IMG/VR virus record: IMGVR_UViG_3300029791_000191
Direction: 5' to 3' (one strand)
Source: a virus
DNA: 64,000 nt
Both the position numbers and the translations under genes were made by a program. The first letter of the stretch is position 1. Each line of letters opens with the position of its first letter. Below the pieces are notes generated by a model. The model had not been told where the DNA came from. It did no database searches and saw only the letters and a list, made by a program, of their open reading frames with translations. Shown piece by piece: positions 2,534 to 51,298 of the stretch.

Positions 2534-3169
2534 ATGAGATATGTTTTAGAAAGTGAAAAATATCCTGGAAATTATTTGGTGTTTAAACATGGAAGTCCTC
2601 CTCATGTGGTGGATTTAAAATCTGCTCAGAAGTTTGACAATGTACCGAAAGCTTTAAACAGGATATCAACAATTCCTAAAAATTTAAGCATATACGCCCC
2701 TTGGAAAGTAACATCAGTTGATGAGAGAGTTGGTTTTGTACAGCAGAATAAATCTCTTGTAGAGATTGGTGATTATAAAAAGAAAATAGATGACAGCATA
2801 TTGCCTATTAAAGAAATATTAGGTAATAGAAAACCTTTAGAAAAACAGCTAAAGGAACTGGAGCTTATATCTCAGGATCTTGATCACTATATAGAATTTA
2901 ATAAACTGAATGTTACTTCTGGATATTGGGCCTATAAAATAAAAAAAGCAATTAGAGAGAAACGAAGAAGTATAAAAGAAGATCTATATTATATAGATTA
3001 TCTTCAGACAGCTTCATTACCTCAAATTGTAAACGGGGAAGGGAGGCCTAATTTAGATAATCAAAAATATCGAATTAGATCAGATATTGGACAAGAGTTT
3101 TTTAATCAGAAGTACATATCTAAAGAAATAGCAGAGAAGATTTGCAAAGAAATAGAGGAGATTACATAA
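2534..3169 (+). CDS. hypothetical protein (211 aa)
   Basis: ORF with RBS AAGGAAGAGG upstream; no recognisable motif. Confidence 0.45.
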   Translation: MRYVLESEKYPGNYLVFKHGSPPHVVDLKSAQKFDNVPKALNRISTIPKNLSIYAPWKVTSVDERVGFVQQNKSLVEIGDYKKKIDDSILPIKEILGNRKPLEKQLKELELISQDLDHYIEFNKLNVTSGYWAYKIKKAIREKRRSIKEDLYYIDYLQTASLPQIVNGEGRPNLDNQKYRIRSDIGQEFFNQKYISKEIAEKICKEIEEIT

Positions 3170-4074
3170 TGAATGAATTAATTATGCTGGTAGGTTTACC
3201 TGCTTCCGGTAAAAGTACATGGGCTAAAGAGTATTCAGAAACTCATCCTGATTATATAGTGCACTCTTCTGATAAACTCAGAGAAGAAATGTATGGAGAT
3301 AATTATGATGACGCAGACAACAGTAAAGTATTTGAAGAACTGCATCGTAGAATACTGGAAGATTTGAAAATGCATTCGGTTATTTATGATGCTACTAATT
3401 TGGTAAAGAAAAGAAGAGTGCATTTTTTAAAAGGAGTTCCTAAACATGTTTATAAAACATGTATTATGTTTTTGAAAACGTATGAAAAATGTTTAAAGGA
3501 TAACTCAAAAAGGGAAAATTCAGTTCCAGACGAAGTGATTACAAGAATGAGGAAAGTATTTTCTCCACCAATGTACCATGAAGGGTTCAATGAAATTAGA
3601 GTTGTACAAGATGATCATAAAGATATAAAAGAATTAATAGATATGGCTCGTGACTTCGATCAAGAGAATCCACATCATTCTCTTACTCTTTATGAACATC
3701 TGAAAAAGGTTTCAGAAGGAGTACCTAGAGAAGAAAAAAATTTATGGGTGGCGGCCTGTCTCCATGATATTGGAAAGCTTTTCACTAAATCAAGAATTAA
3801 TGGAAAAGGTGAAGAGGATGATTACTGTCACTATTATCAACATCATTGTGTTGGAGCTTATGAATGTTTAACATGTTTTGATTTTTCCGGTGCACTTACA
3901 GGAAAAGATATATATGATGCTTTTTATACAGCAAATTTGATTTATTATCATATGCATCCCTATTTATCATGGTCGCAATCAAACAAGGCAAAGAATAAAG
4001 ATAAGTATTTAATTGGAAAACAGATGTTTTCAGATGTGATGTTATTACATGAAGCAGATGTTAAAGGGCATTGA
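3169..4074 (+). CDS. polynucleotide 5'-kinase (P-loop) fused to a C-terminal HD-domain phosphohydrolase, Pnkp-like end-healing enzyme
   Basis: ATG at 3169 after RBS AGAGGAG (ATAATG stop-start overlap). N-terminus LIMLVGLPASGKSTWAKEY resembles the T4 Pnk kinase Walker A; C-terminal half has the HD signature (AACLHDIGK) and further His/Asp residues. Confidence 0.6.
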   Translation: MNELIMLVGLPASGKSTWAKEYSETHPDYIVHSSDKLREEMYGDNYDDADNSKVFEELHRRILEDLKMHSVIYDATNLVKKRRVHFLKGVPKHVYKTCIMFLKTYEKCLKDNSKRENSVPDEVITRMRKVFSPPMYHEGFNEIRVVQDDHKDIKELIDMARDFDQENPHHSLTLYEHLKKVSEGVPREEKNLWVAACLHDIGKLFTKSRINGKGEEDDYCHYYQHHCVGAYECLTCFDFSGALTGKDIYDAFYTANLIYYHMHPYLSWSQSNKAKNKDKYLIGKQMFSDVMLLHEADVKGH

Positions 4075-4114: not shown

Positions 4115-5215
4115 ATGAGAATTATTAAGGTAGGAAACACATTTAGAACTTACGACGATTCATTAGAAACTTTCGACAAGCTTCCGGCTCAGAATTATGT
4201 CGTGAGGTTTCAAAAGAATTCTGGTTTCTTTTTAGAAAAATATGCAGACATAGAAATCAAAGAAAAAACCTACGGAGTACATATGAGTAAGGTTGAAAAA
4301 GTTCTTAAGGCTTTTCCAAAAGCAGAAAAGAACCTTGGCGTTATCCTGTCAGGCAATAAAGGAATCGGCAAATCATTGTTTGCAAAGACATTGGCTGTGG
4401 AAGCAACAAAAGTTGGTTTACCAGTTATCATTGTAGACACGTATATTCCTGGAATTGCAAGTTTCATAGAAGAAATTGAACAGGAAGTAATGATACTGTT
4501 TGATGAATTTGATAAAACATTTGGCAGTATTAAAGCTGCTGATGGCATGGCAGATCCTCAAACAGAAATGCTTACATTGTTTGATGGATTGTCTCAAGGG
4601 AAGAAAATGTTTGTGATTACTTGTAATGACCTCAACTCGTTAAATAGTTATTTAGTAAACAGACCTGGAAGATTCCACTATCATTTTAGATTTGAGTATC
4701 CGTCAGATGCTGAAATTACAGAGTACTTAGAAGATAAGTTAGATAAACAGTATTACAGTGAAATTGAAAAAGTAATTTCTTTCGCTCACAAAGTAGATTT
4801 AAACTATGACTGCCTGAGAGCAATTGCATTCGAGTTGAATTTTGGAGAGCCTTTTGAGATAGCAATCAAAGATTTGAACATTATTAATCTGAATAGTGTT
4901 ATATATGAAGTCATTTTACATCTTGAAGATGGTTCTGAAGCAACTACAAAATTGACTATTGATTTCTTTGATAAGAGCGCAACGATTGAACCAGAATTCT
5001 GCTTTAAAGGAACCTATGTAGATGCTTCTTGTAAAGTTCTTGATTGTGAGTTTGATCATAAAAAAGGCATCATTTATGTATCTGGAAATGATATTAAATT
5101 AGAAAGTGATAATTACTACAATGATGAAGAAGATAAAAAGATCATCAAAACAATGAAGCCAGCATATATGACTTTTGTAAGAGCAAAAAGTAGAGAATTG
5201 CATTATGCAGTATAA
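4115..5215 (+). CDS. classical-clade AAA+ ATPase (366 aa)
   Basis: Walker A GNKGIGKS, Walker B ILFDEFDK, sensor-2-like VNRPGRFHY. Confidence 0.55.
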   Translation: MRIIKVGNTFRTYDDSLETFDKLPAQNYVVRFQKNSGFFLEKYADIEIKEKTYGVHMSKVEKVLKAFPKAEKNLGVILSGNKGIGKSLFAKTLAVEATKVGLPVIIVDTYIPGIASFIEEIEQEVMILFDEFDKTFGSIKAADGMADPQTEMLTLFDGLSQGKKMFVITCNDLNSLNSYLVNRPGRFHYHFRFEYPSDAEITEYLEDKLDKQYYSEIEKVISFAHKVDLNYDCLRAIAFELNFGEPFEIAIKDLNIINLNSVIYEVILHLEDGSEATTKLTIDFFDKSATIEPEFCFKGTYVDASCKVLDCEFDHKKGIIYVSGNDIKLESDNYYNDEEDKKIIKTMKPAYMTFVRAKSRELHYAV

Positions 5216-5251: not shown

Positions 5252-5324
5252 GAGGGTAGTGGCCAAGCGGTAAGGCACAGCACTTTGACTGCTGCATTCA
5301 TGGGTTCGAATCCCATCTACCCCG
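5252..5324 (+). tRNA. tRNA-Gln (anticodon UUG)
   Basis: Hand-folded cloverleaf: anticodon stem CAGCA/TGCTG with loop CTTTGAC, T arm ATGGG-TTCGAAT-CCCAT, 7-bp acceptor with a 1:72 mismatch; 5' boundary +/-1 nt. Confidence 0.65.
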
Positions 5325-5745
5325 TAGTTCTAAGTTAGCTCTGAAGGCCAAAGAGGTAACCGATAGAACTAAGGTATACCTACTTATGTTCATGGCGAAC
5401 ATAGATAAAACTTAAGTGAAAATTTGGATGGTTTAATAACTGGAACCTGTTCAAAAAAGGGAACACAGTACATTGGTAGCAATGGTTTGAATGTACAAAA
5501 CATTTATATAGATGTGCTTTGTGCTAATGAGGTTGTAAGTGGGAAGTTGGAGGATGATCTGGTTAAGCAGATGTGTAGATTAGTTATGAAGCAAAAAAGT
5601 AATTGAGTCAGTGAGGTAGAAATAATGTGGGAGGGCTTTTGAGAGTGATGACGATCGTTCGTGTAACTGACACGATTGCATAAAAGTTTTTTACAGATAT
5701 TGTTACATTTCTATATTGTGGGTGTAATTATAACGCCCACTACAT

Positions 5746-5819
5746 GGAAACTTAGCTCAGTTGGTTAGAGCAACCGGCTCATAACCGGTCGGTCCTGGGT
5801 TCGAGTCCCAGAGTTTCCA
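5746..5819 (+). tRNA. tRNA-Met (anticodon CAU; could be initiator, elongator or Ile-lysidine type)
   Basis: Perfect acceptor GGAAACT/AGTTTCC, D arm GCTC-AGTTGGTTAG-AGC, anticodon stem ACCGG/CCGGT with loop CTCATAA, T arm CTGGG-TTCGAGT-CCCAG. Confidence 0.75.
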
Positions 5820-6042
5820 TTTCTCCTGACGAAGGAGTGACTTTTGAGAGCTCTAATTTTCAATAGTAAAGAGCCGTTGCTGATTTGGTAGTGAGAATCA
5901 GATGGCGCTGGAAAGACAGATAGTTTTTGAGATGTTTTGTAATGAGACAAACATTCAGCTTTAGAGAAAATGTAGGGAATTGAGCTGATCAAAGAACACA
6001 TAATCCTGTTGTGACTGCAGCATGACAGGTCATGCATGAAAA

Positions 6043-6117
6043 GTGATAAGTAGCTCAGTTGGGAGAAAGAGCGCACTACAAAAGTGAGGTCGGTGGTTCG
6101 AGTCCACTCTTATCACA
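6043..6117 (+). tRNA. tRNA-like gene with aberrant D and anticodon arms (possible degenerate or unusual tRNA; anticodon not assignable by eye)
   Basis: 8-bp acceptor complementarity GTGATAAG/CTTATCAC, D stem GCTC..GAGC with 12-nt loop, canonical T arm GGTGG-TTCGAGT-CCACT and variable AGGTC as in tRNA-Ile/Ala. Only 13 nt remain for the anticodon arm, where 17 are expected. Confidence 0.4.
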
Positions 6118-7238: not shown

Positions 7239-7320
7239 CCACCCATGGTGGAATTGGCAGACACGTTAGATTTAGGTTCTAATGCTTAATAGCGTGAGAG
7301 TTCGAGTCTCTCTGGGTGGA
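7239..7320 (+). tRNA. tRNA-Leu (anticodon UAG), type II with long variable arm
   Basis: Acceptor CCACCCA/TGGGTGG, anticodon stem TTAGA/TCTAA with loop TTTAGGT, variable arm TGCTTAATAGCG, T arm GAGAG-TTCGAGT-CTCTC. Confidence 0.7.
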
Positions 7321-7344: not shown

Positions 7345-7944
7345 ATGTTTCAAGTAGGAGATATAGTACAAGTAATAATAGTGCCTAAAAAATATAAACA
7401 ATATGATATTGCAGGTGCTACAGGCGTTGTAAAAACAGTTTATTCTAACAATATAAGAATACATATCTCTAGTTATTACAATGAAGAATCAGAAGAAGGA
7501 GATTTTTATTTTAAAGAAAATGAGCTAAATAATTTTACAAGAAAGGAAAATGATATGTCAATTATAGAACTTTGGGAGAAAAGAAGTATTGAAAAGATTG
7601 ATAAGGAAGCTGAAATTAAATTAATGGAATTGCTTGCAGAAGATGAATATACTCATGATTTAATTTTACACATGAATGATCTAAAAGATGCCGGGTTTAA
7701 AGTTGAAATACCAAATAATATTTATGATATGACTTCTGATTATACCAGAGGAATGAGAACTATTACTTTAAGTTCAGCAGAAGAGAAAAAAGTTGAAATT
7801 AAAAAAGTAGCAGAAGAAGTTGGTGTCTTATTAGAGATGTGTAAAGGAGACGTTGTTAAAGAAATGGAGATTCTTTGTAGCTATAGAGTTGTAGAGTACC
7901 CATTCGGGAGAATGACTGTTGGAGGTAATGCTTGTGGGAAATAA
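7345..7944 (+). CDS. hypothetical protein (199 aa)
   Basis: RBS AAAGGAG upstream; no motif recognised. Confidence 0.45.
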   Translation: MFQVGDIVQVIIVPKKYKQYDIAGATGVVKTVYSNNIRIHISSYYNEESEEGDFYFKENELNNFTRKENDMSIIELWEKRSIEKIDKEAEIKLMELLAEDEYTHDLILHMNDLKDAGFKVEIPNNIYDMTSDYTRGMRTITLSSAEEKKVEIKKVAEEVGVLLEMCKGDVVKEMEILCSYRVVEYPFGRMTVGGNACGK

Positions 7945-8494
7945 AAAGAAAGTTCTGATTGTAGTTGATGTGCAGAATGATTTTGTAACTGGCTCACTAG
8001 GTACGCCGGAAGCTCAAGCTATTGTACCTAAAATTAAAGAAAAGTTTGAAGAATATAAAAATAATGGGGATTATGTAGTGTATACAATGGATACACATAA
8101 TTCAGATTATTTGAATACTTCTGAGGGTAAAAAACTTCCTGTTGAACATTGTATATATCGAACTTCAGGGTGGGAGGTTATAGATGAAATTCATCCTGTA
8201 AAAAATAATTATAACAATTTTATGGTATGTAAAAAGTCAACTTTTGGTTATGAAGGCTGGGATTGGGAAGAAATATTTGGGACAGACAGTGATATAGACA
8301 ATTTAAACATTGAAATCATAGGTGTGTGTACAGACATCTGCGTTATCACAAATGCTCTTCTTATCAAAACTTATTATCCGGAGGCAGAGATCACAGTAGA
8401 TGCGTCATGTTGCGCTGGAACTACACCGGAGAAGCATAAAGCAGCTTTAGAGGTGATGAAAAGTTGTCAGATTAATGTGATAGGAGAGAAATAA
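7934..8494 (+). CDS. pncA: isochorismatase-family hydrolase, nicotinamidase (PncA)-like
   Basis: VLIVVDVQNDF N-terminal signature and catalytic-cysteine context GVCTDICV. Start ambiguous: GTG 7934 after GGAGGT, or TTG 7919. Confidence 0.65.
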   Translation: MGNKKKVLIVVDVQNDFVTGSLGTPEAQAIVPKIKEKFEEYKNNGDYVVYTMDTHNSDYLNTSEGKKLPVEHCIYRTSGWEVIDEIHPVKNNYNNFMVCKKSTFGYEGWDWEEIFGTDSDIDNLNIEIIGVCTDICVITNALLIKTYYPEAEITVDASCCAGTTPEKHKAALEVMKSCQINVIGEK

Positions 8495-9010: not shown

Positions 9011-9814
9011 ATGATTAAATTAAACGGTGTAGAAATCAAACTTGATAAATATCCGGATGGGACATTCTTATTTAAGAATATCCCACCCATCGGAGGATGG
9101 TGTAGAGATAATATTGAATGGTTCTTTGAATCAATGGAAGAATTAACAGCAGTTGAATATATTACTAGATATTGTTGGGATCATAGAGTAGTGCCTAATT
9201 TATATATGCCTTATATCCCAGATGCACGTATGGATCGAGTCAAGCATGAGAACGAATTATTTACTTTAAAATATTTTGCTCAGACTATTAATTCATTACA
9301 TTTTGGAAAAGTAGAAGTTTTAGATCCGCATTCTGATGTATCTGCCGCATTATTTAATAAAGTACATGTAGAATCCCCGAATCGAATGATTGAGGATGCT
9401 GTTAAGAAGATTGCGAGTAATAACCTTATGATGTTTTATCCGGATGCGGGATCCATGAAGCGATATTCTTCAGCAGTACATCTTCCATATGCTTTCGGTA
9501 TTAAGAATAGAGATTGGGAGACTGGAGAAATTAAAGGTTTAGATTTATCAGGTGAAATTAATCAACTGCCAGGTAAAGATATCCTTATTGTAGATGATAT
9601 CTGCAGCAGAGGTGGTACTTTTTATTATAGTGCTAAGAAACTAAAAGAAACAGGAGTAAATAAGATTTATCTTTATATAACTCATTGTGAGAATACTATT
9701 TATGAAGGAGAACTTCTGAAAAACAATGGACTGATTGAGAAGATTTATACGACAGATACGATTCTAACAAATCTGGAAAGTCCTAAGATTGAACTGGTTG
9801 AAAGGTTTAGATAA
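9011..9814 (+). CDS. Prs-family (ribose-phosphate pyrophosphokinase fold) phosphoribosyl-pyrophosphate enzyme; Prs or Adps-like
   Basis: Matches Prs motifs: MPYIPDARMDR (PYxxYARQDR), VEVLDPHS, FYPDAGSMKRY, PRPP loop ILIVDDICSRGGT; 267 aa. Confidence 0.65.
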   Translation: MIKLNGVEIKLDKYPDGTFLFKNIPPIGGWCRDNIEWFFESMEELTAVEYITRYCWDHRVVPNLYMPYIPDARMDRVKHENELFTLKYFAQTINSLHFGKVEVLDPHSDVSAALFNKVHVESPNRMIEDAVKKIASNNLMMFYPDAGSMKRYSSAVHLPYAFGIKNRDWETGEIKGLDLSGEINQLPGKDILIVDDICSRGGTFYYSAKKLKETGVNKIYLYITHCENTIYEGELLKNNGLIEKIYTTDTILTNLESPKIELVERFR

Positions 9815-10216: not shown

Positions 10217-10585
10217 ATGAAACCGATTATTAGTCCTTGGTTGATTTATTCTGCTAGTAGAGCAGATAATTTAACAACATTTTTTGGAATGATCGCAGGA
10301 ATATGCGGAGTTATTGCTATGTGTGCTTTATTTGCTGGATTAACCGGATATAACGAACCATTTAAGTTTAGAAAAACTATTAGCAAATTAATTATCGGAT
10401 GTGTTGTAATGACTATCATTACAATCATGACACCTAATACAGAAACAATATATACGATGGCAGTTGTAAATGAAATCACACCAGATAATATTCAAACAAT
10501 TGGCAAAACTGGTAAAGATGTAGTTGATTATATCACAGATCAGATTGATAAAATTGTAAATGACAAAGAGGAGGATAAAAAATAA
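10217..10585 (+). CDS. small integral membrane protein (122 aa)
   Basis: Hydrophobic segments; RBS GGGAGAT upstream. Confidence 0.4.
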   Translation: MKPIISPWLIYSASRADNLTTFFGMIAGICGVIAMCALFAGLTGYNEPFKFRKTISKLIIGCVVMTIITIMTPNTETIYTMAVVNEITPDNIQTIGKTGKDVVDYITDQIDKIVNDKEEDKK

Positions 10586-12060
10586 TGGATACCTTAGCAA
10601 TTCTGTTAAGCGATACTTACAAACAAGTACACCACAATATGTTTCCGAGAGGATTGACGAAGTTAGTCTCTTATTGGACTCCGAGAAGATCAATGTTAAA
10701 GGAGCAGGATCATATGGTTTTCTTCGGACTGCAGGCTTTTATTAAAGAATATCTTATTACATATTTTAAAAGAGATTTCTTTAAATTAAGCACTGATGAA
10801 GTTCAAGAACTTTATACAATTAGTATGGACATTCAGTTAGGAGAAGGAAATTACGATATTTCTCCAATCCTTAAACTTCACGAATTAGGGTATCTTCCGA
10901 TTCAGATCCGTGCATTACCGGAAGGTACATTAGTGCCTATGGGAGTGCCATGCATTGAAATCACGAATACACATCCAGATTTTGCATGGGTTGTGCAGTG
11001 GATTGAGTGTATTCTGCAGGTTGAGCTTTGGAAGCCGTGTGCTCATGCAACAATTGGACATATGTACAGAGAACTGGCAAATTTCTACTATAAAAAGACC
11101 TGCGACGACATTTTAAGACCTGAAATGGCCTGCTCAGACTTTGGAATGCGTGGAATGTCCTGTATGGAAGAAGCAGAGAGATGCTCCGTTGCTTGGCTAT
11201 TATCCTTTGATAAGACAAGTACGATCCCGGCAATTGATTATTTGGACAAATATTATTTCAATGACTGTAGCGTGAGTCATATTGGAATTGGTGCGATTTC
11301 TACCGAACATGCGGTCATGGCTTCAAATTATGCTGTGGACGGAGACGAAATTACATTTGTGAAAAGACTACTTACAGAATTATATCCGAATGCATCTTTC
11401 AGCATGGTATCTGATACATATGATTACTGGAACATGATTGACAATATTCTTCCAGCTTGCAAAAAAGAAATTATGCAGCACAATGGTAAGCTCTTGGTTC
11501 GTCCGGATTCTGGTGATATGGTAGAGATTTCAGTTAAGACTATCGAAAAACTCTGGAATACATTTGAAGGATCAGTAAATAGCAAAGGTTACAAAGTACT
11601 GGACCCTCATATTGGAATTATCTATGGTGATGGCTGTACTCTTAACAATGTAAAAAAGGTATGGGAAGAACTTGAGAAGAAAGGATTCGCTGCAAACAAC
11701 ATTGTATTTGGAGTTGGGGCTTTTTGTTTCTCGGCAGTTGTAGAACCTGATGGACGTATGGTCGTTGTAACCAGAGATATGTTCGGCATTGCTATGAAAG
11801 CTACATTTGGAGAAGTTAACGGACAACCGATTATGATTTACAAAGATCCAAAGACAGATGTAAGCCATTTAAAGAAATCTCATAAAGGATGTTGTCATGT
11901 ATATTACGATGAAAATGGAGAATTAAGGTGCAGAGATGGATATGACAGCTTTGTTTATGATGGGGCATTAAAAACTGTATTTAAAGACGGTGAAATATAT
12001 CATACAGAAATATTTAAAGAAATCAGAGACAGATTAAACGGAAGAAACAAAGATGAGTAA
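10585..12060 (+). CDS. NAMPT-family phosphoribosyltransferase (NadV / Namat-like)
   Basis: 491 aa; N-terminal LAILLSDTYKQVHHNMFP resembles the NAMPT signature LLATDSYKVTHYKQYP; size and position next to the Prs-like gene. Confidence 0.6.
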   Translation: MDTLAILLSDTYKQVHHNMFPRGLTKLVSYWTPRRSMLKEQDHMVFFGLQAFIKEYLITYFKRDFFKLSTDEVQELYTISMDIQLGEGNYDISPILKLHELGYLPIQIRALPEGTLVPMGVPCIEITNTHPDFAWVVQWIECILQVELWKPCAHATIGHMYRELANFYYKKTCDDILRPEMACSDFGMRGMSCMEEAERCSVAWLLSFDKTSTIPAIDYLDKYYFNDCSVSHIGIGAISTEHAVMASNYAVDGDEITFVKRLLTELYPNASFSMVSDTYDYWNMIDNILPACKKEIMQHNGKLLVRPDSGDMVEISVKTIEKLWNTFEGSVNSKGYKVLDPHIGIIYGDGCTLNNVKKVWEELEKKGFAANNIVFGVGAFCFSAVVEPDGRMVVVTRDMFGIAMKATFGEVNGQPIMIYKDPKTDVSHLKKSHKGCCHVYYDENGELRCRDGYDSFVYDGALKTVFKDGEIYHTEIFKEIRDRLNGRNKDE

Positions 12061-12543: not shown

Positions 12544-12951
12544 ATGAGTAGAACATATTTTACTGATTCCGTTTCAGATCTTTGTCAGGGGATTATTGAT
12601 AAAATAGATACTTATGAAAAACGAATTAAATACCTAGAAAAAGAAAACAAGAAGCTCAAAGATGAGCATTATAAAGATTCTGAAATGCAGAGAATGGAAG
12701 TAGAACTGAAAAAAGCGAAAGAGGATCTGTATAGAGGATTTCCAATTTCAGAAAAAGAACAAGAGAAAATCAGAGAGTGGGAATTAAAACATGATGCTGA
12801 GAAACATGGTCTGAAAACTTCTAAACAGAGAGCAATGGGGCATGGTTGCATAGGCGGCTCTCTTACATGGTGCTTTACACCAACATCAATCGGAACTATT
12901 GGAGAAGTGATTTGCTCCTGTGGCGAGAAGTTTACATTTCAGGATTTATAG
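12544..12951 (+). CDS. hypothetical coiled-coil protein with C-terminal Cys cluster (135 aa)
   Basis: ORF with RBS; CxxC-like spacing at the C-terminus. Confidence 0.4.
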   Translation: MSRTYFTDSVSDLCQGIIDKIDTYEKRIKYLEKENKKLKDEHYKDSEMQRMEVELKKAKEDLYRGFPISEKEQEKIREWELKHDAEKHGLKTSKQRAMGHGCIGGSLTWCFTPTSIGTIGEVICSCGEKFTFQDL

Positions 12952-12961
12952 GAAAAGATTT

Positions 12962-13462
12962 ATGATTAAAATTATTGAAGGTAACATTGTAGATGCACAG
13001 ACCGATTATATAATTCATCAAGTTAATTGCCAAGGAGAAATGAATACTGGAGTCGCTAAAGCATTAAGAGATTATGACGAAGGTATTTATATACATTATA
13101 GAAACGTCTGTAAATTACGTGAGTTTAATCCAGAATTACTTCTTGGAACATATGACGAGTACTTTATCAGAAGGAAAAATCAAGAGATATTGTCCTTATT
13201 TGCACAAGACAAGTATGGATATGATGGAAAACAGTATACTGATGTTAAAGCTTTTCGAGAAGGATTAAATTTTATTCGACAACAAATACCTGTTTATTGG
13301 TTTGATGCTGATAACAGACCTCACAAGACAACCATTGCACTCCCATATAAAATAGGCTGCGGAAGAGGAGGAGCAGACTGGGAAGTGGTTTATAAGATTA
13401 TAGAAGAAGAATTAAGTAGTTTTGAAGTAGAACTGTGGAAATTGGAGGAGCAGAATGTTTAA
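12962..13462 (+). CDS. macro domain protein (ADP-ribose binding or hydrolysing)
   Basis: IIHQVNCQGEMNTGVAKAL matches the macro domain N-terminal glycine-rich motif; about 167 aa. Confidence 0.6.
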   Translation: MIKIIEGNIVDAQTDYIIHQVNCQGEMNTGVAKALRDYDEGIYIHYRNVCKLREFNPELLLGTYDEYFIRRKNQEILSLFAQDKYGYDGKQYTDVKAFREGLNFIRQQIPVYWFDADNRPHKTTIALPYKIGCGRGGADWEVVYKIIEEELSSFEVELWKLEEQNV

Positions 13463-14600
13463 TGTAGAAAAAGCAACAAATGATTGTATTCAGTGGATTA
13501 GAGATTGGAGAGAAGAGAATGGTCCTGGATGTAATCTCATAGTAGGTATTTCCGGTGGCGTTGACTCTTTAGTAGCTGCTGAGCTATGTGTGGAAGCCGT
13601 TGGAGCTGACAAAGTTCTCGGAGTAATCATGCCGAACTATAAACAGGATGATATTGATGTGGCTTATGATATTTGCCAGCATGTATTAAACATTGATTAT
13701 CTTACTATTAATATTGGATCAGCTTATGATGATATTATTGATCAAATTGATGCTGCATTTAATGTAACAGATCAGACATTAATTAATCTCGCTCCTAGAC
13801 TAAGAATGACCACTCTATACGGGGTGTCACAGTCACACAATGGAAGAGTGGTTAATACATGTAACCTCAGTGAGGATTACATTGGATATGCCACTAGATA
13901 TGGAGACGCAGCTGGAGATTTTGCTCCATTGGCACAGTTTACAAAGGGAGAGGTAAAAAGAATCGGGCATTATTTAGGATTGCCTAAAAATTATGTAGAG
14001 AAGACCCCGTCGGATGGTTTATGTGGTAAATCAGACGAAGATAACTTTGGATTCACCTATGCAGTATTAGATAAATACATCCGTACAGGAGTGTGTGACG
14101 ATCCAGAAGTAAAAAGACGGATTGATCGTTTACATGAGAAGAATGAGTTTAAACTGAAACCAATGCAGTATTTTAATTATAAAGAGGAGAAAACAGATAT
14201 GAATATGTCACCAGATGAGATTTTAAAAGCATTTGAAAAAGCAGTAGCGAAAAAAGAAAAAGAGCATACTATTGGAGAAGAGCTTAGAAGCTGTGAGCGC
14301 CAGATTAAAGATGCTTTAGGCATTGATGTATATATTGTACCTAAAAATAAAACTGATAAACAGGTTTGTAAAACACTTTCGAAAGATGATATCACATTTG
14401 TAGGAAGAACAAAAGATATTGCTACAGGAAAAATTAGAACTACTGTAGGATTTAAAGATGGTACACAGACTTCTGTAGTCTTAAATGATTGGGAAGATGA
14501 AGATGATACTGAAAAAGCCATTATGTGGTGTTTGCTTAAGAAGTGTTTCAAATCAAAAAGAAGCTTAGAAAAAGTAATTTATTCAATGGAGGACATGTAA
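13455..14600 (+). CDS. nadE: NH3-dependent NAD+ synthetase (NadE) with about 110-aa C-terminal extension of unknown function
   Basis: PP-loop LIVGISGGVDSLVAA, then NadE-like core; extra C-terminal domain. Confidence 0.7.
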   Translation: MFNVEKATNDCIQWIRDWREENGPGCNLIVGISGGVDSLVAAELCVEAVGADKVLGVIMPNYKQDDIDVAYDICQHVLNIDYLTINIGSAYDDIIDQIDAAFNVTDQTLINLAPRLRMTTLYGVSQSHNGRVVNTCNLSEDYIGYATRYGDAAGDFAPLAQFTKGEVKRIGHYLGLPKNYVEKTPSDGLCGKSDEDNFGFTYAVLDKYIRTGVCDDPEVKRRIDRLHEKNEFKLKPMQYFNYKEEKTDMNMSPDEILKAFEKAVAKKEKEHTIGEELRSCERQIKDALGIDVYIVPKNKTDKQVCKTLSKDDITFVGRTKDIATGKIRTTVGFKDGTQTSVVLNDWEDEDDTEKAIMWCLLKKCFKSKRSLEKVIYSMEDM

Positions 14601-15590: not shown

Positions 15591-16109
15591 ATGAAAATAA
15601 AAGCAAAGCAAATAATTGTAGATGGGAGCACATCTTATAAATATTATAAACCTAAATTCTGTTGCAAAGCATTGGAAGAGAATCCTAGGATAGTTATTTC
15701 TAATGAATATCCTGATAACTACTTATGTAGAACTTGTGAAACTATAGAATGCCATGGTTGTGACTATAAAACTGATGAAACTTTTGGAATTTTCTTTTAC
15801 ATAAGCGAAGAAGTCCAAGACTGGGAAGATACATGGCCTGAAGACTATTATTACCCTCTTAAATTCTGTCCATTTTGCGGAGAACCAATTGAAGTTGATG
15901 TCATAGAAACCATTGATAAAACAGAAGAAGCAGAAAAGGTATCTGAGGTTGCAACGAAGCTACGAAAACAGTTATGGACATGTGATAGCAAGAAAAAGTG
16001 TGCAGAGTTAGAAAAAGAGATAAGGAACTTAGACGATATAGTAAATTATTATTATTCAACAGGAGAAATTGATGAAAATAGAGAAAATCAAAAAATTGTT
16101 GAAAAGTGA
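15591..16109 (+). CDS. Cys-rich zinc-ribbon protein (172 aa)
   Basis: CxxC and CPFCG motifs: CRTCETIECHGC and CPFCGEP. Confidence 0.45.
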   Translation: MKIKAKQIIVDGSTSYKYYKPKFCCKALEENPRIVISNEYPDNYLCRTCETIECHGCDYKTDETFGIFFYISEEVQDWEDTWPEDYYYPLKFCPFCGEPIEVDVIETIDKTEEAEKVSEVATKLRKQLWTCDSKKKCAELEKEIRNLDDIVNYYYSTGEIDENRENQKIVEK

Positions 16110-17103
16110 ACACTATGATTTCTTAAGAGCGAACGAGCACCTGGGGAGTAACATAATTCTATTAGGCTTAGGTGGGTCTCATGCTTATGGTACAGATACA
16201 GAAAACTCCGATCTGGATATTAGGGGTTGTGCTTTAAATAAAAGAGAAGAAATCCTGATTCCTACACATAATTTTGATCAGGTAACGGAAGAAACAACAG
16301 ATACAACAATCTATTCTTTTAATAAATTGATAACTCTATTGTCAAACTGCAACCCAAACACAATTGAGCTGATAGGATTGAAGCCAGAACATTATCTTTA
16401 TATTCATCCAATTGGTCAAGAACTTCTTGATAATGCTGAAATGTTTTTATCTAAGAAAGCGATCTATTCTTTTGGAGGCTATGCTACAAGCCAGCTAAGA
16501 AGGCTCGATAATAAATCTGCCAGGAAATTGGGACAAGAAGAAAGAATGCAGCATGTTCTTAATAGTATTATGAATGCTTTTTATACTTTCCCTGAAAAGT
16601 ATTTCAATTTTCCAGAAGATGCAATAAAGCTTTATGTAGATAAAGGTATTCAGGAAGATTATGAAACAGAAGTATTTATGGATATCCAGTTGAAGCATTA
16701 CCCTTTGAATGATTATCAGGGGATGTGGGCCGAAATGAAAAACATTGTTAGGGATTATTCCAAAATTGGGAAGAGAAATAAGCATGCCATAGAACATAAT
16801 AAGTTAGGAAAGCATATGTGCCATTTAGTGAGATTGTATCTTATGTGTTTTGATATTCTTGAAAAAGGCAAAATTATTACATATAGAGAAGATGATCATG
16901 AGCTTCTTATGGCTCTACGTAATGGAGAATATTTGGATGCAAACAGTCAGCCTATCCCAGAATTTTTTGAAATGGTAAACGAGTTAGAGAAAAGACTTGA
17001 GTATGATTCAAAGAATACCTCATTGCCTGATAAACCAAATTATAAAGCTATAGAAGAATTTGTAATGTCTGTCAATGAAAGAATTGTATTAGGAGAGATT
17101 TAA
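16069..17103 (+). CDS. Pol-beta superfamily nucleotidyltransferase
   Basis: GLGGSHAYGTDTENSDLDIRG = GS..G..(n)DxD NTase active-site signature; 344 aa. Confidence 0.55.
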   Translation: MMKIEKIKKLLKSEHYDFLRANEHLGSNIILLGLGGSHAYGTDTENSDLDIRGCALNKREEILIPTHNFDQVTEETTDTTIYSFNKLITLLSNCNPNTIELIGLKPEHYLYIHPIGQELLDNAEMFLSKKAIYSFGGYATSQLRRLDNKSARKLGQEERMQHVLNSIMNAFYTFPEKYFNFPEDAIKLYVDKGIQEDYETEVFMDIQLKHYPLNDYQGMWAEMKNIVRDYSKIGKRNKHAIEHNKLGKHMCHLVRLYLMCFDILEKGKIITYREDDHELLMALRNGEYLDANSQPIPEFFEMVNELEKRLEYDSKNTSLPDKPNYKAIEEFVMSVNERIVLGEI

Positions 17104-22328: not shown

Positions 22329-22751
22329 ATGATTAATAGTTTTACTGGAGATTATTACTTTTTAAGTAACTTTTATATGGCCCCGGTAAGTTATAACGGA
22401 TGGGACTATACAAATAATGAAGCAGCTTTTCAAGCACAGAAAACAAAAAATCGTAGACTAAAATTTCAGTTATTCTCTCAAGCTAGCCCATCAGAAGCAA
22501 AGGCAGCAGGTAGAAAGATTGATTTGAGATCAGATTGGGAAGAAGTGAAAGATAAAGTAATGTATGAAATCGTACTGGCTAAATTCACTCAGAATCCAGA
22601 CCTTAAGGAAAAATTACTTGCTACAGGAGATGAATATTTGGAAGAGGGTAATACTTGGGGAGATACTATTTGGGGAACTGTAGATGGAGTTGGAGAAAAT
22701 AGGCTTGGGAAGATACTTATGAGAGTGAGAGATGAATTAAATGAAACTTAA
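22329..22751 (+). CDS. NADAR / YbiA-like (DUF1768) domain protein
   Basis: FTGDYYFLSNFY signature (FxGxYxFLSNF) and overall 140-aa size. Confidence 0.65.
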   Translation: MINSFTGDYYFLSNFYMAPVSYNGWDYTNNEAAFQAQKTKNRRLKFQLFSQASPSEAKAAGRKIDLRSDWEEVKDKVMYEIVLAKFTQNPDLKEKLLATGDEYLEEGNTWGDTIWGTVDGVGENRLGKILMRVRDELNET

Positions 22752-27278: not shown

Positions 27279-27836
27279 ATGAATTATTATATTTCAGACT
27301 TACATATCGGTCACACAAATGCATTGGCATTCGATGCTAGACCATTTAAGACAATAGAAGAGAACGATGAAACTATTAAAAATAATTGGAATTCAGTAGT
27401 TGGCTTAGATGATGATGTTTATCTTTTGGGAGATATTAGTTGGTATGGCTCAACTAAAACATTGGAGTATTATAGTCAGTTAAATGGTAGGATTCATTTA
27501 ATAAAAGGAAATCATGATAATAAGATTCTGAAAAACAAAGATTTACAGAATTTATTTGTAGAAATAGTTGATTATAAAGAACTATACCTTAATCCAAAAG
27601 AGAGTATTATTCTTTGTCATTATCCGATTCCTTGTTTTAAGAATCATTACTATGGTTGGTATCATTTATATGGACATGTACATACAGGTTTTGAAAACAA
27701 TATGATGCAAAGAACAAAGTATGAAATGGAAAATCTATATAATACACCATGTAAAATGTATAATGTCGGAGCAATGCTGCTGAATTATACTCCTAGAACT
27801 TTAGAAGAAATAACAGGAGGAGCTACGTGTTTATAA
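27279..27836 (+). CDS. calcineurin-like metallophosphoesterase (second copy)
   Basis: ISDLHIGH, LLGDIS, GNHDN motifs. Confidence 0.55.
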   Translation: MNYYISDLHIGHTNALAFDARPFKTIEENDETIKNNWNSVVGLDDDVYLLGDISWYGSTKTLEYYSQLNGRIHLIKGNHDNKILKNKDLQNLFVEIVDYKELYLNPKESIILCHYPIPCFKNHYYGWYHLYGHVHTGFENNMMQRTKYEMENLYNTPCKMYNVGAMLLNYTPRTLEEITGGATCL

Positions 27837-28002
27837 CTAGAAAAAAGATGAAAAAGAAAATTATTGATACATATAACAAAGGATTCCATATAGGAAAACT
27901 TTATGGTGTTACTAAAATATATAACGAAGTAAAAGGAGGCAACACAGATGTAATTGATCTGTGCAAGAGAATTATGAGTGAGAAAGAGGTATTCAATACT
28001 TA

Positions 28003-29301
28003 ATGTATTGTGCTTACATTACTGAGCTTAAGCAACTTCGTAAACACAGCAATGCTGATAGGCTCCAGCTTGGTACCGTTTTTGGAAATACGGTTATTGT
28101 TGATTTAAGTTATTACGAAGGGCAGAAAGTTGTATTTTTCCCGGTTGATGGTCAGCTAGGAGAAGAATTTGCAAAAGAAAACAATTTACTGCGTATTAAA
28201 AATGAAGATGGAACAACTACAGGTGGATATCTTGATCCTGTAAAACGAAACATTAAAGCTATGAGACTGCGAGGTGAAAAATCAGAAGGATTGGTTTTAC
28301 CAGTAGAATCTCTTAGTAAATGGACTGATATAAATAAATTATCTTTAGGAGATCAAATTACTGTACTTGATGGGACAGTTATCTGTAAAAAATATATTCC
28401 AAGATCAAATCATAAAAAATCTAACAATGGTCCGAAAGTAAAAACTCCAAATTTAAAAAACAAATTTCCTTATTTTAAAGAACATGCTGATACAGAACAG
28501 TTAGCATATAACTTAAATGCCTTTAAACCAGGAGATACTTGTTACATTACTTTGAAAATGCATGGCACATCTGGTCGAACAGCAAATGCAATAGAAGTAA
28601 CTACTAAGAAAAAGACTCTACTACAGAAACTTTTTTGTAGACCGGCTCCTGTTATCAAAGAATGGAAAATAGTTACTGGAACAAGAAGAGTTGTACTCAA
28701 TACATTTGAAGGCGGTTACTATGGGAATGATAAATTTAGACAAAAATATCATGACTACTTTATTGACAGACTGCCAAAAGGAATGGAAGTGTTTTATGAA
28801 ATCGTAGGGTGGGTTGATGGTACAGAGCAGACCATTATGGGAACCTGTTCCAACACTAAAATTAAAGATAAAGAAGTTAAGAAGCTTTACGGTGGTGAAA
28901 CAGTGTTCTCTTATGGGTGTACTCCTGGTACTTCTGATATTTATGTTTATAGAATGACTATGACCAATGAAGATGGGATTATTACAGAGATTCCATGGGA
29001 AGAAGTAAAGAATTGGTGTGATCGTTTAGGAGTTAAACATGTACCTGAATTTGATAAATTCCTGTTTACTACTAAAGAAGATCTTATGGAGCGTGTAGAA
29101 AAATACTATGATGGGCCTGATCCAATAGGGGCGACACATGTTAGAGAAGGTGTAGTTGTAAGAATTGATAATAGAAGTAGCTTTAAGGCTTATAAACATA
29201 AGAATTTCACTTTCAAGGTCCTTGAAGGATTGATAAAAGATTCCTCTGATACACCGGATATGGAAGAGGCGCAAGAAATTATTGAGGAGGAAACTGTATG
29301 A
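28003..29301 (+). CDS. ATP-dependent RNA ligase (Rnl2/Rnl5-like nucleotidyltransferase with N-terminal extra domain)
   Basis: Motif I lysine ITLKMHGTSG (KxHG as in T4 Rnl2 KIHGTN), motif IV VREGVVVR, motif V KAYKHKNFTFK. Confidence 0.65.
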   Translation: MYCAYITELKQLRKHSNADRLQLGTVFGNTVIVDLSYYEGQKVVFFPVDGQLGEEFAKENNLLRIKNEDGTTTGGYLDPVKRNIKAMRLRGEKSEGLVLPVESLSKWTDINKLSLGDQITVLDGTVICKKYIPRSNHKKSNNGPKVKTPNLKNKFPYFKEHADTEQLAYNLNAFKPGDTCYITLKMHGTSGRTANAIEVTTKKKTLLQKLFCRPAPVIKEWKIVTGTRRVVLNTFEGGYYGNDKFRQKYHDYFIDRLPKGMEVFYEIVGWVDGTEQTIMGTCSNTKIKDKEVKKLYGGETVFSYGCTPGTSDIYVYRMTMTNEDGIITEIPWEEVKNWCDRLGVKHVPEFDKFLFTTKEDLMERVEKYYDGPDPIGATHVREGVVVRIDNRSSFKAYKHKNFTFKVLEGLIKDSSDTPDMEEAQEIIEEETV

Positions 29302-30068
29302 CATTAGCAGAGAGATTTTTTAAGGAAGAATTAGAAGTATTTGAAAATGATGATATTCAAGAATTTTGTATTGAATTACTAGATACTGCGCCTACATATT
29401 TCTGGCAAGTATCTGCTTCAAGTACTAACAAATATCACCCTGATTATACAGTTGGTTTTATGGGACTTGCTAAACATGTAAAAGGGGCAACTAGATTCTT
29501 AAATCATATGCTGTCAATTGATTGTATCAAGAGTCAGTTTACATCAAGAGAAAGAGATATGCTACGAACAGCTATTATGAATCATGATGATGAAAAACTT
29601 GGGCGTAATGGCAGTCAATATACTCTTTTTAAACACCCGTTACTTATAGCTGAGAGAATAAAATCCTATAAAGGATTTGAATGGTTGCCAGATGAAGAAT
29701 TGGATTATATTGCAGACTGTTGCGCCTCACATATGGGTGAATGGAACACAGATAAAAGAAGTAAAGATGAGCTGCCATTACCAGAAACAAAAGGTCAGAT
29801 GATAGTTCACTTAGCAGATTATTTAGCATCAAGAAAAGATTTAACAGTATCTTTTGATGAAACTGAAGTAGATGAACTGATGAAAGAATTCAAACCTACA
29901 CCAGAAACATATCTTATGCCATTCGGCAAACATAAGGGAGAACCACTCTCTGAAATTCCAGATAGTTATTTAGGATGGTTGAATGATCAGAATCCATCAG
30001 AACCTCTGAAAACACTACTTGCTGAAGCCTTAGGTATTAGCGGAAGCATCTTTGAAGAGGAGGCATGA
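29298..30068 (+). CDS. HD-like phosphohydrolase candidate with C-terminal DUF3820-like FGKHKGEPLSEIP..YLGWL motif
   Basis: His/Asp pattern KYHPD..AKH..NHDDEK..ASH; C-terminal motif common on phage nuclease/repair proteins; coupled to the RNA ligase gene. Confidence 0.4.
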   Translation: MTLAERFFKEELEVFENDDIQEFCIELLDTAPTYFWQVSASSTNKYHPDYTVGFMGLAKHVKGATRFLNHMLSIDCIKSQFTSRERDMLRTAIMNHDDEKLGRNGSQYTLFKHPLLIAERIKSYKGFEWLPDEELDYIADCCASHMGEWNTDKRSKDELPLPETKGQMIVHLADYLASRKDLTVSFDETEVDELMKEFKPTPETYLMPFGKHKGEPLSEIPDSYLGWLNDQNPSEPLKTLLAEALGISGSIFEEEA

Positions 30069-35642: not shown

Positions 35643-36629
35643 TTGACTGAAATCAGTCAGAAAATCCGACAAGTAACTGAGGAGGATAAGGGGTTACCTT
35701 ATCTCTCCTACAGTAAAGAGAGTAACTTTGATCACTGTCCACTGAGCCACAAATTAAAGTATATAGACAAAAACTTTTCAAAGAAATCGTCTCTTCCTAT
35801 GGAAATTGGTTCTATTTTACATAAGGCATTAGAGCTTAAAGGAAGAATGATAATGGAAGGTAAGACAGTAGATTATGACTATCTTAAAAGCATTACAGAA
35901 GAGGGCTATTTAGAGACTGATGAGAAGTCGGATAATCACATTCTCGGTATAAAAGACCTCAAAAAGAAATATTTTGATGAGTTTTTTACTGCTGATAGTA
36001 AGTCAGGTATGAACTATTCAGAAAAGATGGATATCTTTTATAACAAAGTATTGCCATCTAGGATTGATAGTAAAGAGTGGACTCCCGTAGCAGTAGAACA
36101 GAGATTTGAATTTGTATATGACGACAGAGTTATTATACATGGTTTTATTGATAGAGTGGATAAGAATGCAAAAGAGCAGCTAAGGATTACTGACTATAAA
36201 TCCTCAAAGGCCGTGTTTAGAGATGCAGATATAAAAACACCTATGCAACATGTAATTTATGATCTGGCATGTATTCATTTATATGGACAGCCTGCAACAG
36301 ACCATGTGTATGATTTTATTCTTATAGATGCTATTCAAGGAGCTGACGAAGGTGTATGTACCAAAGGCTATCTTAACAGAGGAATTAAGAAACTGGACAA
36401 GGTGTTAAATGAAATGGATGAAATGGAAATTAAAGGCGAGTATCCTCCCAAACCAACTCCATTATGCTACTGGTGTCCATTCCACAGCACTTCCCCAAAT
36501 GCTGATCCTAAGTTTTCTGGTCTATGTCAGTATCATAGCTTATGGACACCTGAGAAAAAATCATTTGCAGTACTTAATCCTTATGGACAAGAAATAAAGA
36601 AAGAAACTAAGAGAAAGTTGGTGTTCTAG
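35643..36629 (+). CDS. PD-(D/E)xK nuclease, Cas4/RecB-like with C-terminal Fe-S cysteine cluster
   Basis: HGFIDRVD..DYKSS nuclease motifs; C-terminal CYWCPF...C...C. Confidence 0.55.
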   Translation: MTEISQKIRQVTEEDKGLPYLSYSKESNFDHCPLSHKLKYIDKNFSKKSSLPMEIGSILHKALELKGRMIMEGKTVDYDYLKSITEEGYLETDEKSDNHILGIKDLKKKYFDEFFTADSKSGMNYSEKMDIFYNKVLPSRIDSKEWTPVAVEQRFEFVYDDRVIIHGFIDRVDKNAKEQLRITDYKSSKAVFRDADIKTPMQHVIYDLACIHLYGQPATDHVYDFILIDAIQGADEGVCTKGYLNRGIKKLDKVLNEMDEMEIKGEYPPKPTPLCYWCPFHSTSPNADPKFSGLCQYHSLWTPEKKSFAVLNPYGQEIKKETKRKLVF

Positions 36630-51254: not shown

Positions 51255-51298
51255 AAAATGGGAGCTATATCGAAATGATATAACTCCCTTATTTTTAA
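51253..51298. terminator. bidirectional intrinsic terminator between xis (+) and int (-)
   Basis: Hairpin GGGAGCTATATC-GAAAT-GATATAACTCCC flanked by AAAAAA and TTATTTTT. Confidence 0.6.

Follow-up and report, generated by a model that had tools for sequence, protein, structure and literature searches.

Phage repair of broken RNA is a known counter-defence, and it is understood mainly from T4. Enzymes close to those considered here have been described in several organisms. A PNKP subfamily combining a 5'-kinase with an HD phosphohydrolase had already been proposed by the time of a 2007 paper, according to which the PNK of phage RM378 was the one enzyme with demonstrated HD-based 3'-phosphatase activity. 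The PNKP of Deinococcus radiodurans is described with an N-terminal HD domain; the HD-Pnk of Runella slithyformis is described as having its HD domain at the N-terminus and its kinase at the C-terminus, and an upstream ATP-dependent ligase open reading frame (ORF) overlaps its own. Among RNA ligases, the Rnl5 family is defined by an N-terminal domain and a nucleotidyltransferase (NTase) domain without a C-terminal appendage. Here we report on a stretch of viral DNA of 64,000 nucleotides (IMG/VR record IMGVR_UViG_3300029791_000191; the window below means this whole stretch). One of its genes encodes a predicted fusion of a kinase with an HD domain, hereafter Pnk-HD, and another encodes an RNA ligase that resembles Rnl5. 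We believe that, on balance, they probably serve a phage pathway of RNA break repair that is of the T4 type and is assembled from enzyme variants other than those of T4.

The kinase-HD protein and the order of its domains

The Pnk-HD gene and its nearest neighbours are the following.

355-2400: NAD-dependent DNA ligase (LigA) of the phage part
2534-3169, + strand: ORF of 211 amino acids without a family match, translationally coupled to Pnk-HD
3169-4074, + strand: Pnk-HD, 301 amino acids, predicted end-healing enzyme (Pfam AAA_33 and HD)
4115-5215: AAA ATPase, 40 bp after Pnk-HD (PHROG 2376, 7e-108)

A Shine-Dalgarno sequence, GAGGAG, stands before the ATG at 3169, and this ATG shares the sequence TAATG with the stop of the 211-residue ORF; the homologues begin at the same methionine. 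The N-terminal part of the protein (residues ~1-146) is a P-loop 5'-OH polynucleotide kinase and the C-terminal part (~160-301) an HD phosphoesterase, as judged by Pfam matches to AAA_33 at residues 4-134 (2.6e-20) and to HD (PF01966) at 170-261 (1.7e-5; 25.5 bits, with a cutoff of 22).

Conservation was assessed in an alignment of 29 homologues reaching down to 45% identity. In the P-loop, G9-LPAS-G14-K15-S16-T17, residues G9, S13, G14 and K15 are invariant. The further kinase motifs are SSD35-KL-R38, YD74ATN and KR115ENSVP, with D74 and R115 invariant and D35 and R38 conserved in at least 90% of the sequences. We take K15, S16, D35, R38, D74 and R115 to be the counterparts of the essential K15, S16, D35, R38, D85 and R126 of T4 Pnk. 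By sequence, the kinase half matches the Clostridium thermocellum Pnkp kinase (4gp7, 1.4e-7) and T4 Pnk (2.9e-5) in PDB. A confident AF2 model (pLDDT 92, pTM 0.90) retrieves the C. thermocellum kinase (4gp6, 3.6e-7), mammalian PNKP and T4 Pnk with Foldseek. In the HD half, H170, H199-D200, H225, H261 and D297 are invariant, and the best PDB match to a profile of this half is the HD domain of a class II tRNA nucleotidyltransferase, the A-adding enzyme of Aquifex (3wfp, 5e-9), followed by Cas3-HD (5e-3).

An earlier note on this DNA had claimed a kinase-HD fusion at 3169. The fusion is real: its catalytic residues are conserved, and Pfam, PDB and Foldseek agree. The note had also named loss of the metal-binding His and Asp as an objection; the ligands are present and invariant in the alignment, so no such loss is seen. 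The protein is thus a predicted bifunctional healing enzyme with 5'-kinase and 2',3'-cyclic/3' phosphoesterase activities.

The same note called the architecture non-classical and perhaps a distinct variant. This holds for the order of the domains and fails for their combination. In the PNK of RM378 (gene Rm378p110) Pfam places HD at 35-94 and the kinase at 189-325, and hhalign relates both halves to those of the Pnk-HD family, the kinase half with 98.6% probability and the HD half with 94.4% (E 8.5e-8). Like Pnk-HD, the enzymes of RM378, Runella and Deinococcus carry a kinase and an HD phosphoesterase in one polypeptide; in all three HD comes first, whereas Pnk-HD has the reverse order, the kinase at 4-134 and HD at 170-261. 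Since the halves are homologous and their order is opposite, Pnk-HD is a domain-order permutation of the characterised HD-Pnk type. The permuted order is very common in metagenomes. When 1.84 billion cluster representatives were searched with a profile, there were 26,098 matches in all and 1,803 at E <=1e-30; nearly all of the top 150 run end to end, kinase then HD, and most are ~300 residues long. The full-length kinase-then-HD protein also occurs in 37 phage records, nearly all of large Bacillus siphoviruses, often under the label 'polynucleotide kinase'. Our literature searches for a biochemical study of an enzyme with the kinase N-terminal and HD C-terminal found none.

The RNA ligase and its pairing with Pnk-HD

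The ligase lies in a run of four overlapping genes headed by a phosphoesterase.

27279-27836, + strand: calcineurin-type metallophosphoesterase (Pfam Metallophos, 5.9e-7; PHROG 547, 1.5e-43)
27827-28003, + strand: ORF of 58 amino acids (orf58), overlapping the phosphoesterase stop and the ligase start
28003-29301, + strand: Rnl5-like ATP-dependent RNA ligase, 432 amino acids, predicted sealing enzyme (Pfam, PHROG, NCBIfam)
29298-30068, + strand: HD phosphohydrolase with a C-terminal DUF3820/ExoX-like_C motif (PF12843), hereafter HD/DUF3820

The ligase consists of an N-terminal OB domain, an NTase domain and a short acidic tail. Motif I is KMHG at residues 185-188, motif IV EGVVVR at 382-387 and motif V KHK at 398-400. 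Pfam finds RNA_ligase (PF09414) at 180-398 (9.3e-9), the PHA02142 OB-fold match at 6-101 reaches 24.8 bits, just under the Pfam cutoff of 27 bits, and PHROG 968, 'RNA ligase', matches with 1e-71. The NCBIfam model of the DraRnl family, TIGR02306, covers residues 6-221 (2.2e-16) with 59.7 bits, which is below its equivalog cutoff of 151. In an alignment of 12 ligases, down to 34% identity, the invariant residues are K185, H187 and G188 of motif I, E266 and G269 of motif III, Y316 and R317 of motif IIIa, E382, G383 and R387 of motif IV, and K398 and K400 of motif V; Y314 of motif IIIa (Y314-V-Y316-R317) is conserved in at least 90%. The adenylyltransferase motifs I, IV and V that had been read in this gene are therefore present, together with III and IIIa, and invariant.

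A PDB search with the single ligase sequence gave no match. A profile of the full-length ligase recovered the Naegleria NgrRnl entries as its sole significant matches (~1e-6): profile positions 6-124 match NgrRnl residues 8-117, and the C-terminal motifs match weakly and collinearly. T4 Rnl2 stands at E 0.19 in the same search. With a profile of the NTase domain only, nothing in PDB is significant; the best entry is T4 Rnl2 (E 0.07) and NgrRnl is not listed. Since the NTase domain by itself has no significant solved match, we term the ligase Rnl5-like, by its layout and its N-terminal OB domain, and do not regard it as a proven member of Rnl5. Past motif V there are 32 residues, mostly the acidic tail, and no C-terminal domain. 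The label 'Rnl2/Rnl5' or 'Rnl2-like' given to it earlier can be kept in its Rnl5 part, on the grounds of architecture, and is to be dropped in its Rnl2 part.

Rnl2 identity was considered separately and rejected: the N-terminal OB domain is present, the signature C-terminal domain of Rnl2 is absent, and T4 Rnl2 scores E 0.07-0.19.

The acidic tail (29245-29298, residues ~415-432) contains a PDMEE motif, in which D419 is conserved in at least 90% of the ligases and E421 is invariant. This conservation extends even to homologues from mycobacteriophage and Vibrio phage, and the tail might be a protein-docking motif.

On whether the ligase and Pnk-HD belong together, protein-level searches alone were informative; megablast of both regions against 50,697 phage records gave no match. 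Two sets of viral loci were compared: a ligase-centred set of 66 divergent loci (49-66% identity) and 14 close relatives, and a Pnk-HD-centred set of 66 divergent loci (36-47% identity) and 12 close relatives. In the window the two genes are 24 kb apart. Of the 66 divergent ligase loci, 45 encode a full-length Pnk-HD on the same strand at a distance of no more than 2 kb, and when four partial matches are added it is downstream of the ligase in 48 of 49. Conversely, 38 of the 66 divergent Pnk-HD loci have an RNA ligase within 2 kb (31 Rnl5-like, 7 Rnl1-like). The adjacency can be very tight. Only 4 bp separate the ligase (52-54% identical to ours) from the Pnk-HD gene after it in Bacillus phages vB_BcoS-136 and PBC2, and the two genes share 8 bp on a Lachnospiraceae genome contig. 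In Bacillus phage Tsamsa a ligase of the Rnl1 family, confirmed by Pfam, overlaps Pnk-HD by 4 bp and occupies the slot of the Rnl5-like ligase of PBC2, within a shared neighbourhood that includes a protease, a ClpP-like protease and a DNA ligase; Rnl1-type ligases hold this slot upstream of Pnk-HD in the Tsamsa-like Bacillus phages.

The close relatives are arranged as in the window. All 12 relatives in the Pnk-HD set keep the order LigA, 211-residue ORF, Pnk-HD, AAA ATPase, tRNAs, with LigA 770 bp upstream of Pnk-HD, and none of them has an RNA ligase at 10 kb or less from Pnk-HD; likewise, none of the 14 close ligase loci has a Pnk-HD gene that near to the ligase. The 211-residue ORF and the AAA ATPase, present beside Pnk-HD in 12/12 close relatives, accompany it in 0/66 divergent loci. 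DNA ligases are infrequent in the divergent loci, both near Pnk-HD (LigA in 2/66, ATP-dependent in 2/66) and near the RNA ligase (LigA in 5/66, ATP-dependent in 3/66). In the lineage of the window, Pnk-HD is now found next to the LigA of the phage, and the RNA ligase opens the replication module. Because the genes adjoin in divergent relatives and the ligase can be exchanged for Rnl1, we regard Pnk-HD and the ligase, as judged from gene order, as a predicted healing-and-sealing pair: a conserved cassette whose splitting is specific to this lineage. The earlier suggestion that the two form one pathway, separated along the phage, is strongly backed by the conserved adjacency and by the exchange of Rnl1 for the Rnl5-like ligase.

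The HD/DUF3820 protein had been proposed as a partner of the ligase. Several parts of this proposal stand. It is a true HD protein, whose start overlaps the ligase stop as ATGA, so that the genes are translationally coupled; residues 205-246 match PF12843 (DUF3820/QSregVF_b) with 30.4 bits (cutoff 22), and PHROG 5889 matches with 6e-46. The residues H47, H60, H96-D97, H113, H145, H171 and D174 are invariant, among them the HD catalytic residues (H47, H96-D97, H113, H145 and D174), and within the C-terminal motif FGK..Y..W..EP the residues F209-G210-K211, Y224, W227 and E235-P236 are invariant. This motif matches the C-terminal part of NCBI Pol III epsilon-type models; in homologues, which carry PF01966 HD with PF20600 or PF12843, Pfam labels the equivalent region ExoX-like_C. 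PDB searches with the single sequence and with a profile gave no match. The best Foldseek match of the predicted structure (pLDDT 82) is YhaM (9h3f, E 7e-4, TM-scores 0.50 and 0.59), which we take to be an HD-domain 3'-5' exonuclease.

A conserved partnership is the part that fails: HD/DUF3820 is next to the ligase in 14/14 close relatives and within 10 kb of it in 1/66 divergent loci, and no other ORF with a DUF3820-type C-terminal motif was found near the ligase. In relatives it follows the genes for Pol III alpha and an ERCC4 nuclease or has a primase gene nearby. As it is lineage-specific beside the ligase, found among replication genes in relatives and similar to YhaM, we do not count it as a core repair part and presume that it is probably a protein of the replication module or of 3'-end processing. 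A secondary reading is suggested by Deinococcus, where DraRnl is co-transcribed with a protein bearing a DEDDh 3'-exonuclease-like N-terminus, so that the pairing of Rnl5 with a 3'-exonuclease may recur; by this analogy the HD/ExoX-like_C protein could be an HD-type 3' exonuclease in place of the DEDDh one.

The two HD domains of the window, in Pnk-HD and in HD/DUF3820, were also compared as possible members of one family. This was rejected: hhalign gives a marginal 36%, and they belong to different HD families.

A predicted route of RNA repair and its alternatives

Further genes that bear on the function of the pair are listed below.

5253-5324, + strand: tRNA-Gln(UUG) (Rfam 62.3 bits)
5745-5820, + strand: tRNA-Met(CAU) (Rfam 73.6 bits)
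6043-6117, + strand: tRNA-like gene with anticodon ACA and an atypical anticodon arm (Rfam 41.1 bits, weak)
7239-7320, + strand: tRNA-Leu(UAG) (Rfam 51.8 bits)
16069-17103, + strand: RlaP-family Pol-beta nucleotidyltransferase (Pfam PF10127, 4e-16, 59.9 bits, cutoff 23)

Downstream of Pnk-HD, at a distance of 1.2-3.2 kb, come the three tRNA genes and the tRNA-like one. Each was called by both ARAGORN and Rfam, which confirms the tRNA-Gln, tRNA-Met, tRNA-Leu and tRNA-like genes reported before.

Neither RlaP nor the calcineurin-type phosphoesterase had been listed in the earlier note. RlaP is 11 kb from the ligase in the window; its homologues occur within 10 kb of the ligase in 13 of the 66 divergent loci (within 50 bp in 4) and within 10 kb of Pnk-HD in 10 of 66. 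In 21 of the 66 divergent loci the ligase has a gene resembling a CCA-adding enzyme no more than 10 kb away. According to a 2025 preprint (PMC12776372), RlaP puts one or two nucleoside monophosphates onto damaged RNA 3' ends, is needed to restore function to tRNAs that are short of nucleotides, and is proposed as an antidote to ribotoxins such as RloC. By analogy, the RlaP of the window is predicted to restore one or two lost nucleotides at an RNA 3'-OH before ligation. The phosphoesterase, which has a weak NCBIfam match to the ligase-associated PdeM family, precedes the ligase by no more than 2 kb in 10 of the 14 close relatives and is within 10 kb of it in 3 of the 66 divergent loci; as a neighbour of the ligase it is lineage-specific. 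It is a possible second 3'-end phosphoesterase, and its membership in the repair pathway is uncertain.

With these genes the route could be as follows. A host ribotoxin, for example an anticodon nuclease, would cut RNA and leave a 2',3'-cyclic phosphate and a 5'-OH. The HD domain of Pnk-HD, which is related to that of CCA-adding enzymes, would strip the cyclic or 3' phosphate to give a 3'-OH, and the P-loop kinase domain would phosphorylate the 5'-OH from a nucleoside triphosphate. Where nucleotides were also lost, RlaP may add one or two to the 3'-OH. The ligase would then adenylylate itself on Lys185, pass AMP to the 5'-phosphate and seal the break, and the phage tRNA genes next to Pnk-HD may supplement the depleted tRNAs.

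We infer the enzyme activities, the RNA (especially tRNA) substrate and the trigger. That the substrate is RNA, and probably tRNA, is suggested by the exchange with Rnl1, by the RlaP and CCA-adding neighbours, by the tRNA-nucleotidyltransferase type of the HD domain and by the rarity of DNA ligase neighbours. We further infer tRNA repair against host ribotoxins as the most likely role.

Several points weigh against it. The two genes are separated in the window and no RNA ligase is near Pnk-HD in the 12 close relatives, so their co-regulation here is unproven; Pnk-HD adjoins a DNA ligase, and the RNA ligase adjoins replication genes. The substrates sealed by characterised Rnl5 enzymes are duplex nicks with a 3'-OH RNA strand rather than broken single-stranded loops, and DraRnl, the only Rnl5 enzyme whose phenotype is known, functions when cells recover from DNA damage. 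The NTase domain of our ligase, taken alone, has no significant match to NgrRnl. Genes for tRNAs are near Pnk-HD in 28 of the 66 divergent loci, a count that has no baseline to be set against. The earlier note overstated the link to anticodon nucleases, which rests on analogy and gene context; in the T4 pathway, unlike here, the cognate host anticodon nuclease is known.

These points lead to the strongest alternative, which we nevertheless consider rather unlikely: the genes would repair breaks in DNA or in RNA-DNA hybrids while the phage replicates. DNA ends with 5'-OH and 3'-phosphate would be healed by Pnk-HD so that the adjacent LigA can join them, and the Rnl5-like ligase with a YhaM-like HD trimmer would seal nicks with a ribonucleotide 3' end, such as RNA-patched gaps and primer junctions. 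The preference of Rnl5 enzymes for nicked duplexes with a 3'-OH RNA strand fits this, as does DraRnl, whose deletion sensitises Deinococcus to ionising radiation and which is co-transcribed with a putative 3' exonuclease. The local context fits also: the ligase is coupled to an HD protein that has the YhaM exonuclease as its best fold match and a C-terminal motif matching Pol III epsilon models, the ligase operon abuts the replication module, and LigA is 770 bp from Pnk-HD in every close relative. In Tsamsa-like phages an ATP-dependent DNA ligase is found 0.9-1.3 kb downstream of Pnk-HD. In the work of Munir and Shuman from 2017, the Runella HD-Pnk reportedly acts on DNA as well as RNA ends. 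In the divergent loci, however, DNA ligases are rare neighbours, whereas RNA ligases, CCA-adding-like enzymes and RlaP are common; moreover, HD/DUF3820 is a neighbour specific to this lineage, Pnk-HD has an HD domain of the type found in tRNA nucleotidyltransferases, and the ligase slot is interchangeable with Rnl1, the ligase type of tRNA repair in T4.

It is very improbable that the genes became functionally unrelated after the cassette broke up, Pnk-HD acting on small molecules (nucleotides or NAD-related metabolites of the neighbouring NAD salvage module) and the ligase in another role: AAA_33-type kinases do include small-molecule kinases (Pfam matches to 6PF2K and others), genes for PncA-like, PRPP synthase, NAMPT and NadE proteins follow Pnk-HD within a few kb, and the 24-kb separation is fixed in all close relatives, but the conserved residues and best structural matches are those of polynucleotide kinases, Pnk-HD is 36-47% identical to orthologues in ligase operons without a sign of change in the active site, and NAMPT is within 10 kb of Pnk-HD in only 5 of the 66 divergent loci.

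We thus keep RNA break repair, most likely of tRNA, as the preferred explanation.

The prophage and its place among known systems

The window is the end of a large prophage in the genome of a gut Blautia (Lachnospiraceae). From position 1 to ~51,100 the + strand holds nearly all long ORFs and GC is 33-35%; at ~52 kb GC climbs to 42-43%. The features at the junction are the following.

51295-52557, - strand: integrase at the prophage end, followed by tRNA-Arg(CCG)
52831: tRNA-Arg(CCG), the fifth tRNA of the window, not listed in the earlier note, on the host side of the prophage end
56248-58206: NAD-dependent DNA ligase of the host part

Beyond the tRNA-Arg gene there are ordinary bacterial genes, among them this second NAD-dependent DNA ligase, which is 87% identical to that of a Blautia isolate. 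The assignment follows from the integrase on the - strand, the tRNA-Arg(CCG), the jump in GC and the bacterial genes, and the junction suggests a temperate phage of ~160 kb integrated near a tRNA gene. The Pnk-HD and ligase genes recur, identical or nearly so, on IMG/VR viral contigs as long as ~163 kb. An 80%-identical relative of Pnk-HD is found on ENA contigs of 162 and 179 kb, with the local gene order unchanged.

Between 7919 and 14600, and at 22329-22751, there is a module for NAD+ salvage and ADP-ribose, which resembles the counter-defence NAD modules described for large phages.

7919-8494: isochorismatase/PncA-like
9011-9814: PRPP synthase-like, named from syntenic relatives
10585-12060: NAMPT-like, named from syntenic relatives
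12920-13462: Macro/DarG-like (NCBIfam DarG, 5e-13)
13455-14600: NAD synthase-like, named from syntenic relatives
22329-22751: NADAR protein

The gene for DNA polymerase III alpha is apparently in two ORFs (36629-39193 and 40025-41413), and the ORF between them (39302-39946) looks by eye like an HNH homing endonuclease. Rfam at the gathering threshold found no group I or II intron at 36629-41413.

Some observations concern small RNAs. The third tRNA slot (6043-6117; ~12,830-13,220 in the related phages L017-L027) varies among near-identical phages. On a shared acceptor/T-arm scaffold the anticodon is ACA in the window and in L020 and L026 and GCA in L022, and L024 has a different anticodon arm with CAT; four phages have an unrelated tRNA-Phe(GAA) in this slot, and in three it is empty. 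The anticodon arm of the ACA tRNA-like gene admits a fold with a 4-bp stem and a loop of 5 nt. Inside the tRNA cluster, between an ORF ending at 6796 and tRNA-Leu, there is a RAGATH-27 RNA (RF03100; 6803-6890, + strand; 91.3 bits, gathering threshold 76.1). A RAGATH-18 RNA (RF03064; 63437-63509, + strand; 58.1 bits, gathering threshold 44.9) lies in the host part.

For this prophage, the pathway is ordinary in concept and its genes are merely dispersed. The concept itself is known already, and so is the combination of a kinase with HD in the other domain order; the ligase belongs, or stands close, to a family already described. The novelty is modest and consists of three points: the healing enzyme is an abundant variant in domain order, it is strongly paired with Rnl5-like ligases, and the dispersal of the cassette is specific to this lineage. 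More generally, and as a tentative proposal that we hold less firmly than the repair function in this phage, a phage branch of Rnl5 and the domain-swapped Pnk-HD may form a conserved two-gene cassette, interchangeable with Rnl1 and often accompanied by RlaP and CCA-adding enzymes, whose ligases would be true enzymes of RNA (probably tRNA) break repair countering host ribotoxins. If so, the Rnl5 family, with functions called 'uncharted' in the literature, would obtain a physiological role, and Pnk-HD would be an uncharacterised and very abundant class of end-healing enzymes in gut and Bacillus phages. The pairing offers a testable substrate hypothesis for Rnl5-type ligases. Both proteins are small and could serve as reagents for RNA end-healing and nick-sealing.

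Among described systems, the C. thermocellum Pnkp provides the closest solved homologue of the Pnk-HD kinase domain (4gp7, 1.4e-7). The Pnkp and Pnkp-Hen1 systems consist of a kinase-phosphoesterase-ligase fusion and the Hen1 methyltransferase, neither of which is in the window. A calcineurin-type phosphoesterase also heads the ligase operon here, whereas the phosphoesterase fused to the kinase is HD. In Runella the upstream ligase ORF overlaps the HD-Pnk gene, and the orthologues of Pnk-HD are arranged alike; the Pnk-HD of the window itself is not beside the ligase.

The ligase shares with DraRnl and NgrRnl, both Rnl5, the N-terminal OB domain, the NTase domain and the lack of a C-terminal domain; NgrRnl and TIGR02306 match its N-domain and the region of motif I. 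It differs from them in length: they have ~340 residues, and the ligase, ~90 residues longer (432 in total), has a linker, an insertion at ~270-312 and the conserved acidic tail. It also differs in its link to a healing enzyme in relatives, as no such link is reported for DraRnl in the literature searched. Many mycobacteriophages encode RNA ligases that match the one in the window, and Mycobacterium phage homologues appear in the literature among the relatives of DraRnl.

The logic of the T4 Pnk/Rnl1 repair of tRNA is the same as that proposed here: a phage kinase-phosphatase, an ATP-dependent RNA ligase and phage tRNAs. As in Pnk-HD, the kinase of T4 Pnk comes first and the phosphatase second, with the same catalytic residues in the kinase; the phosphatase of T4 Pnk is HAD (DxDxT) and that of Pnk-HD is HD. 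The T4 ligase is Rnl1 and the one in the window is Rnl5-like, and yet in some relatives of Pnk-HD an Rnl1-type ligase, as in T4, stands in for it. A different set of enzymes, Pnk-HD with an Rnl5-like ligase and often with RlaP and a CCA-adding enzyme, thus appears to do the job of the T4 enzymes in large phages of gut Lachnospiraceae and Bacillus.

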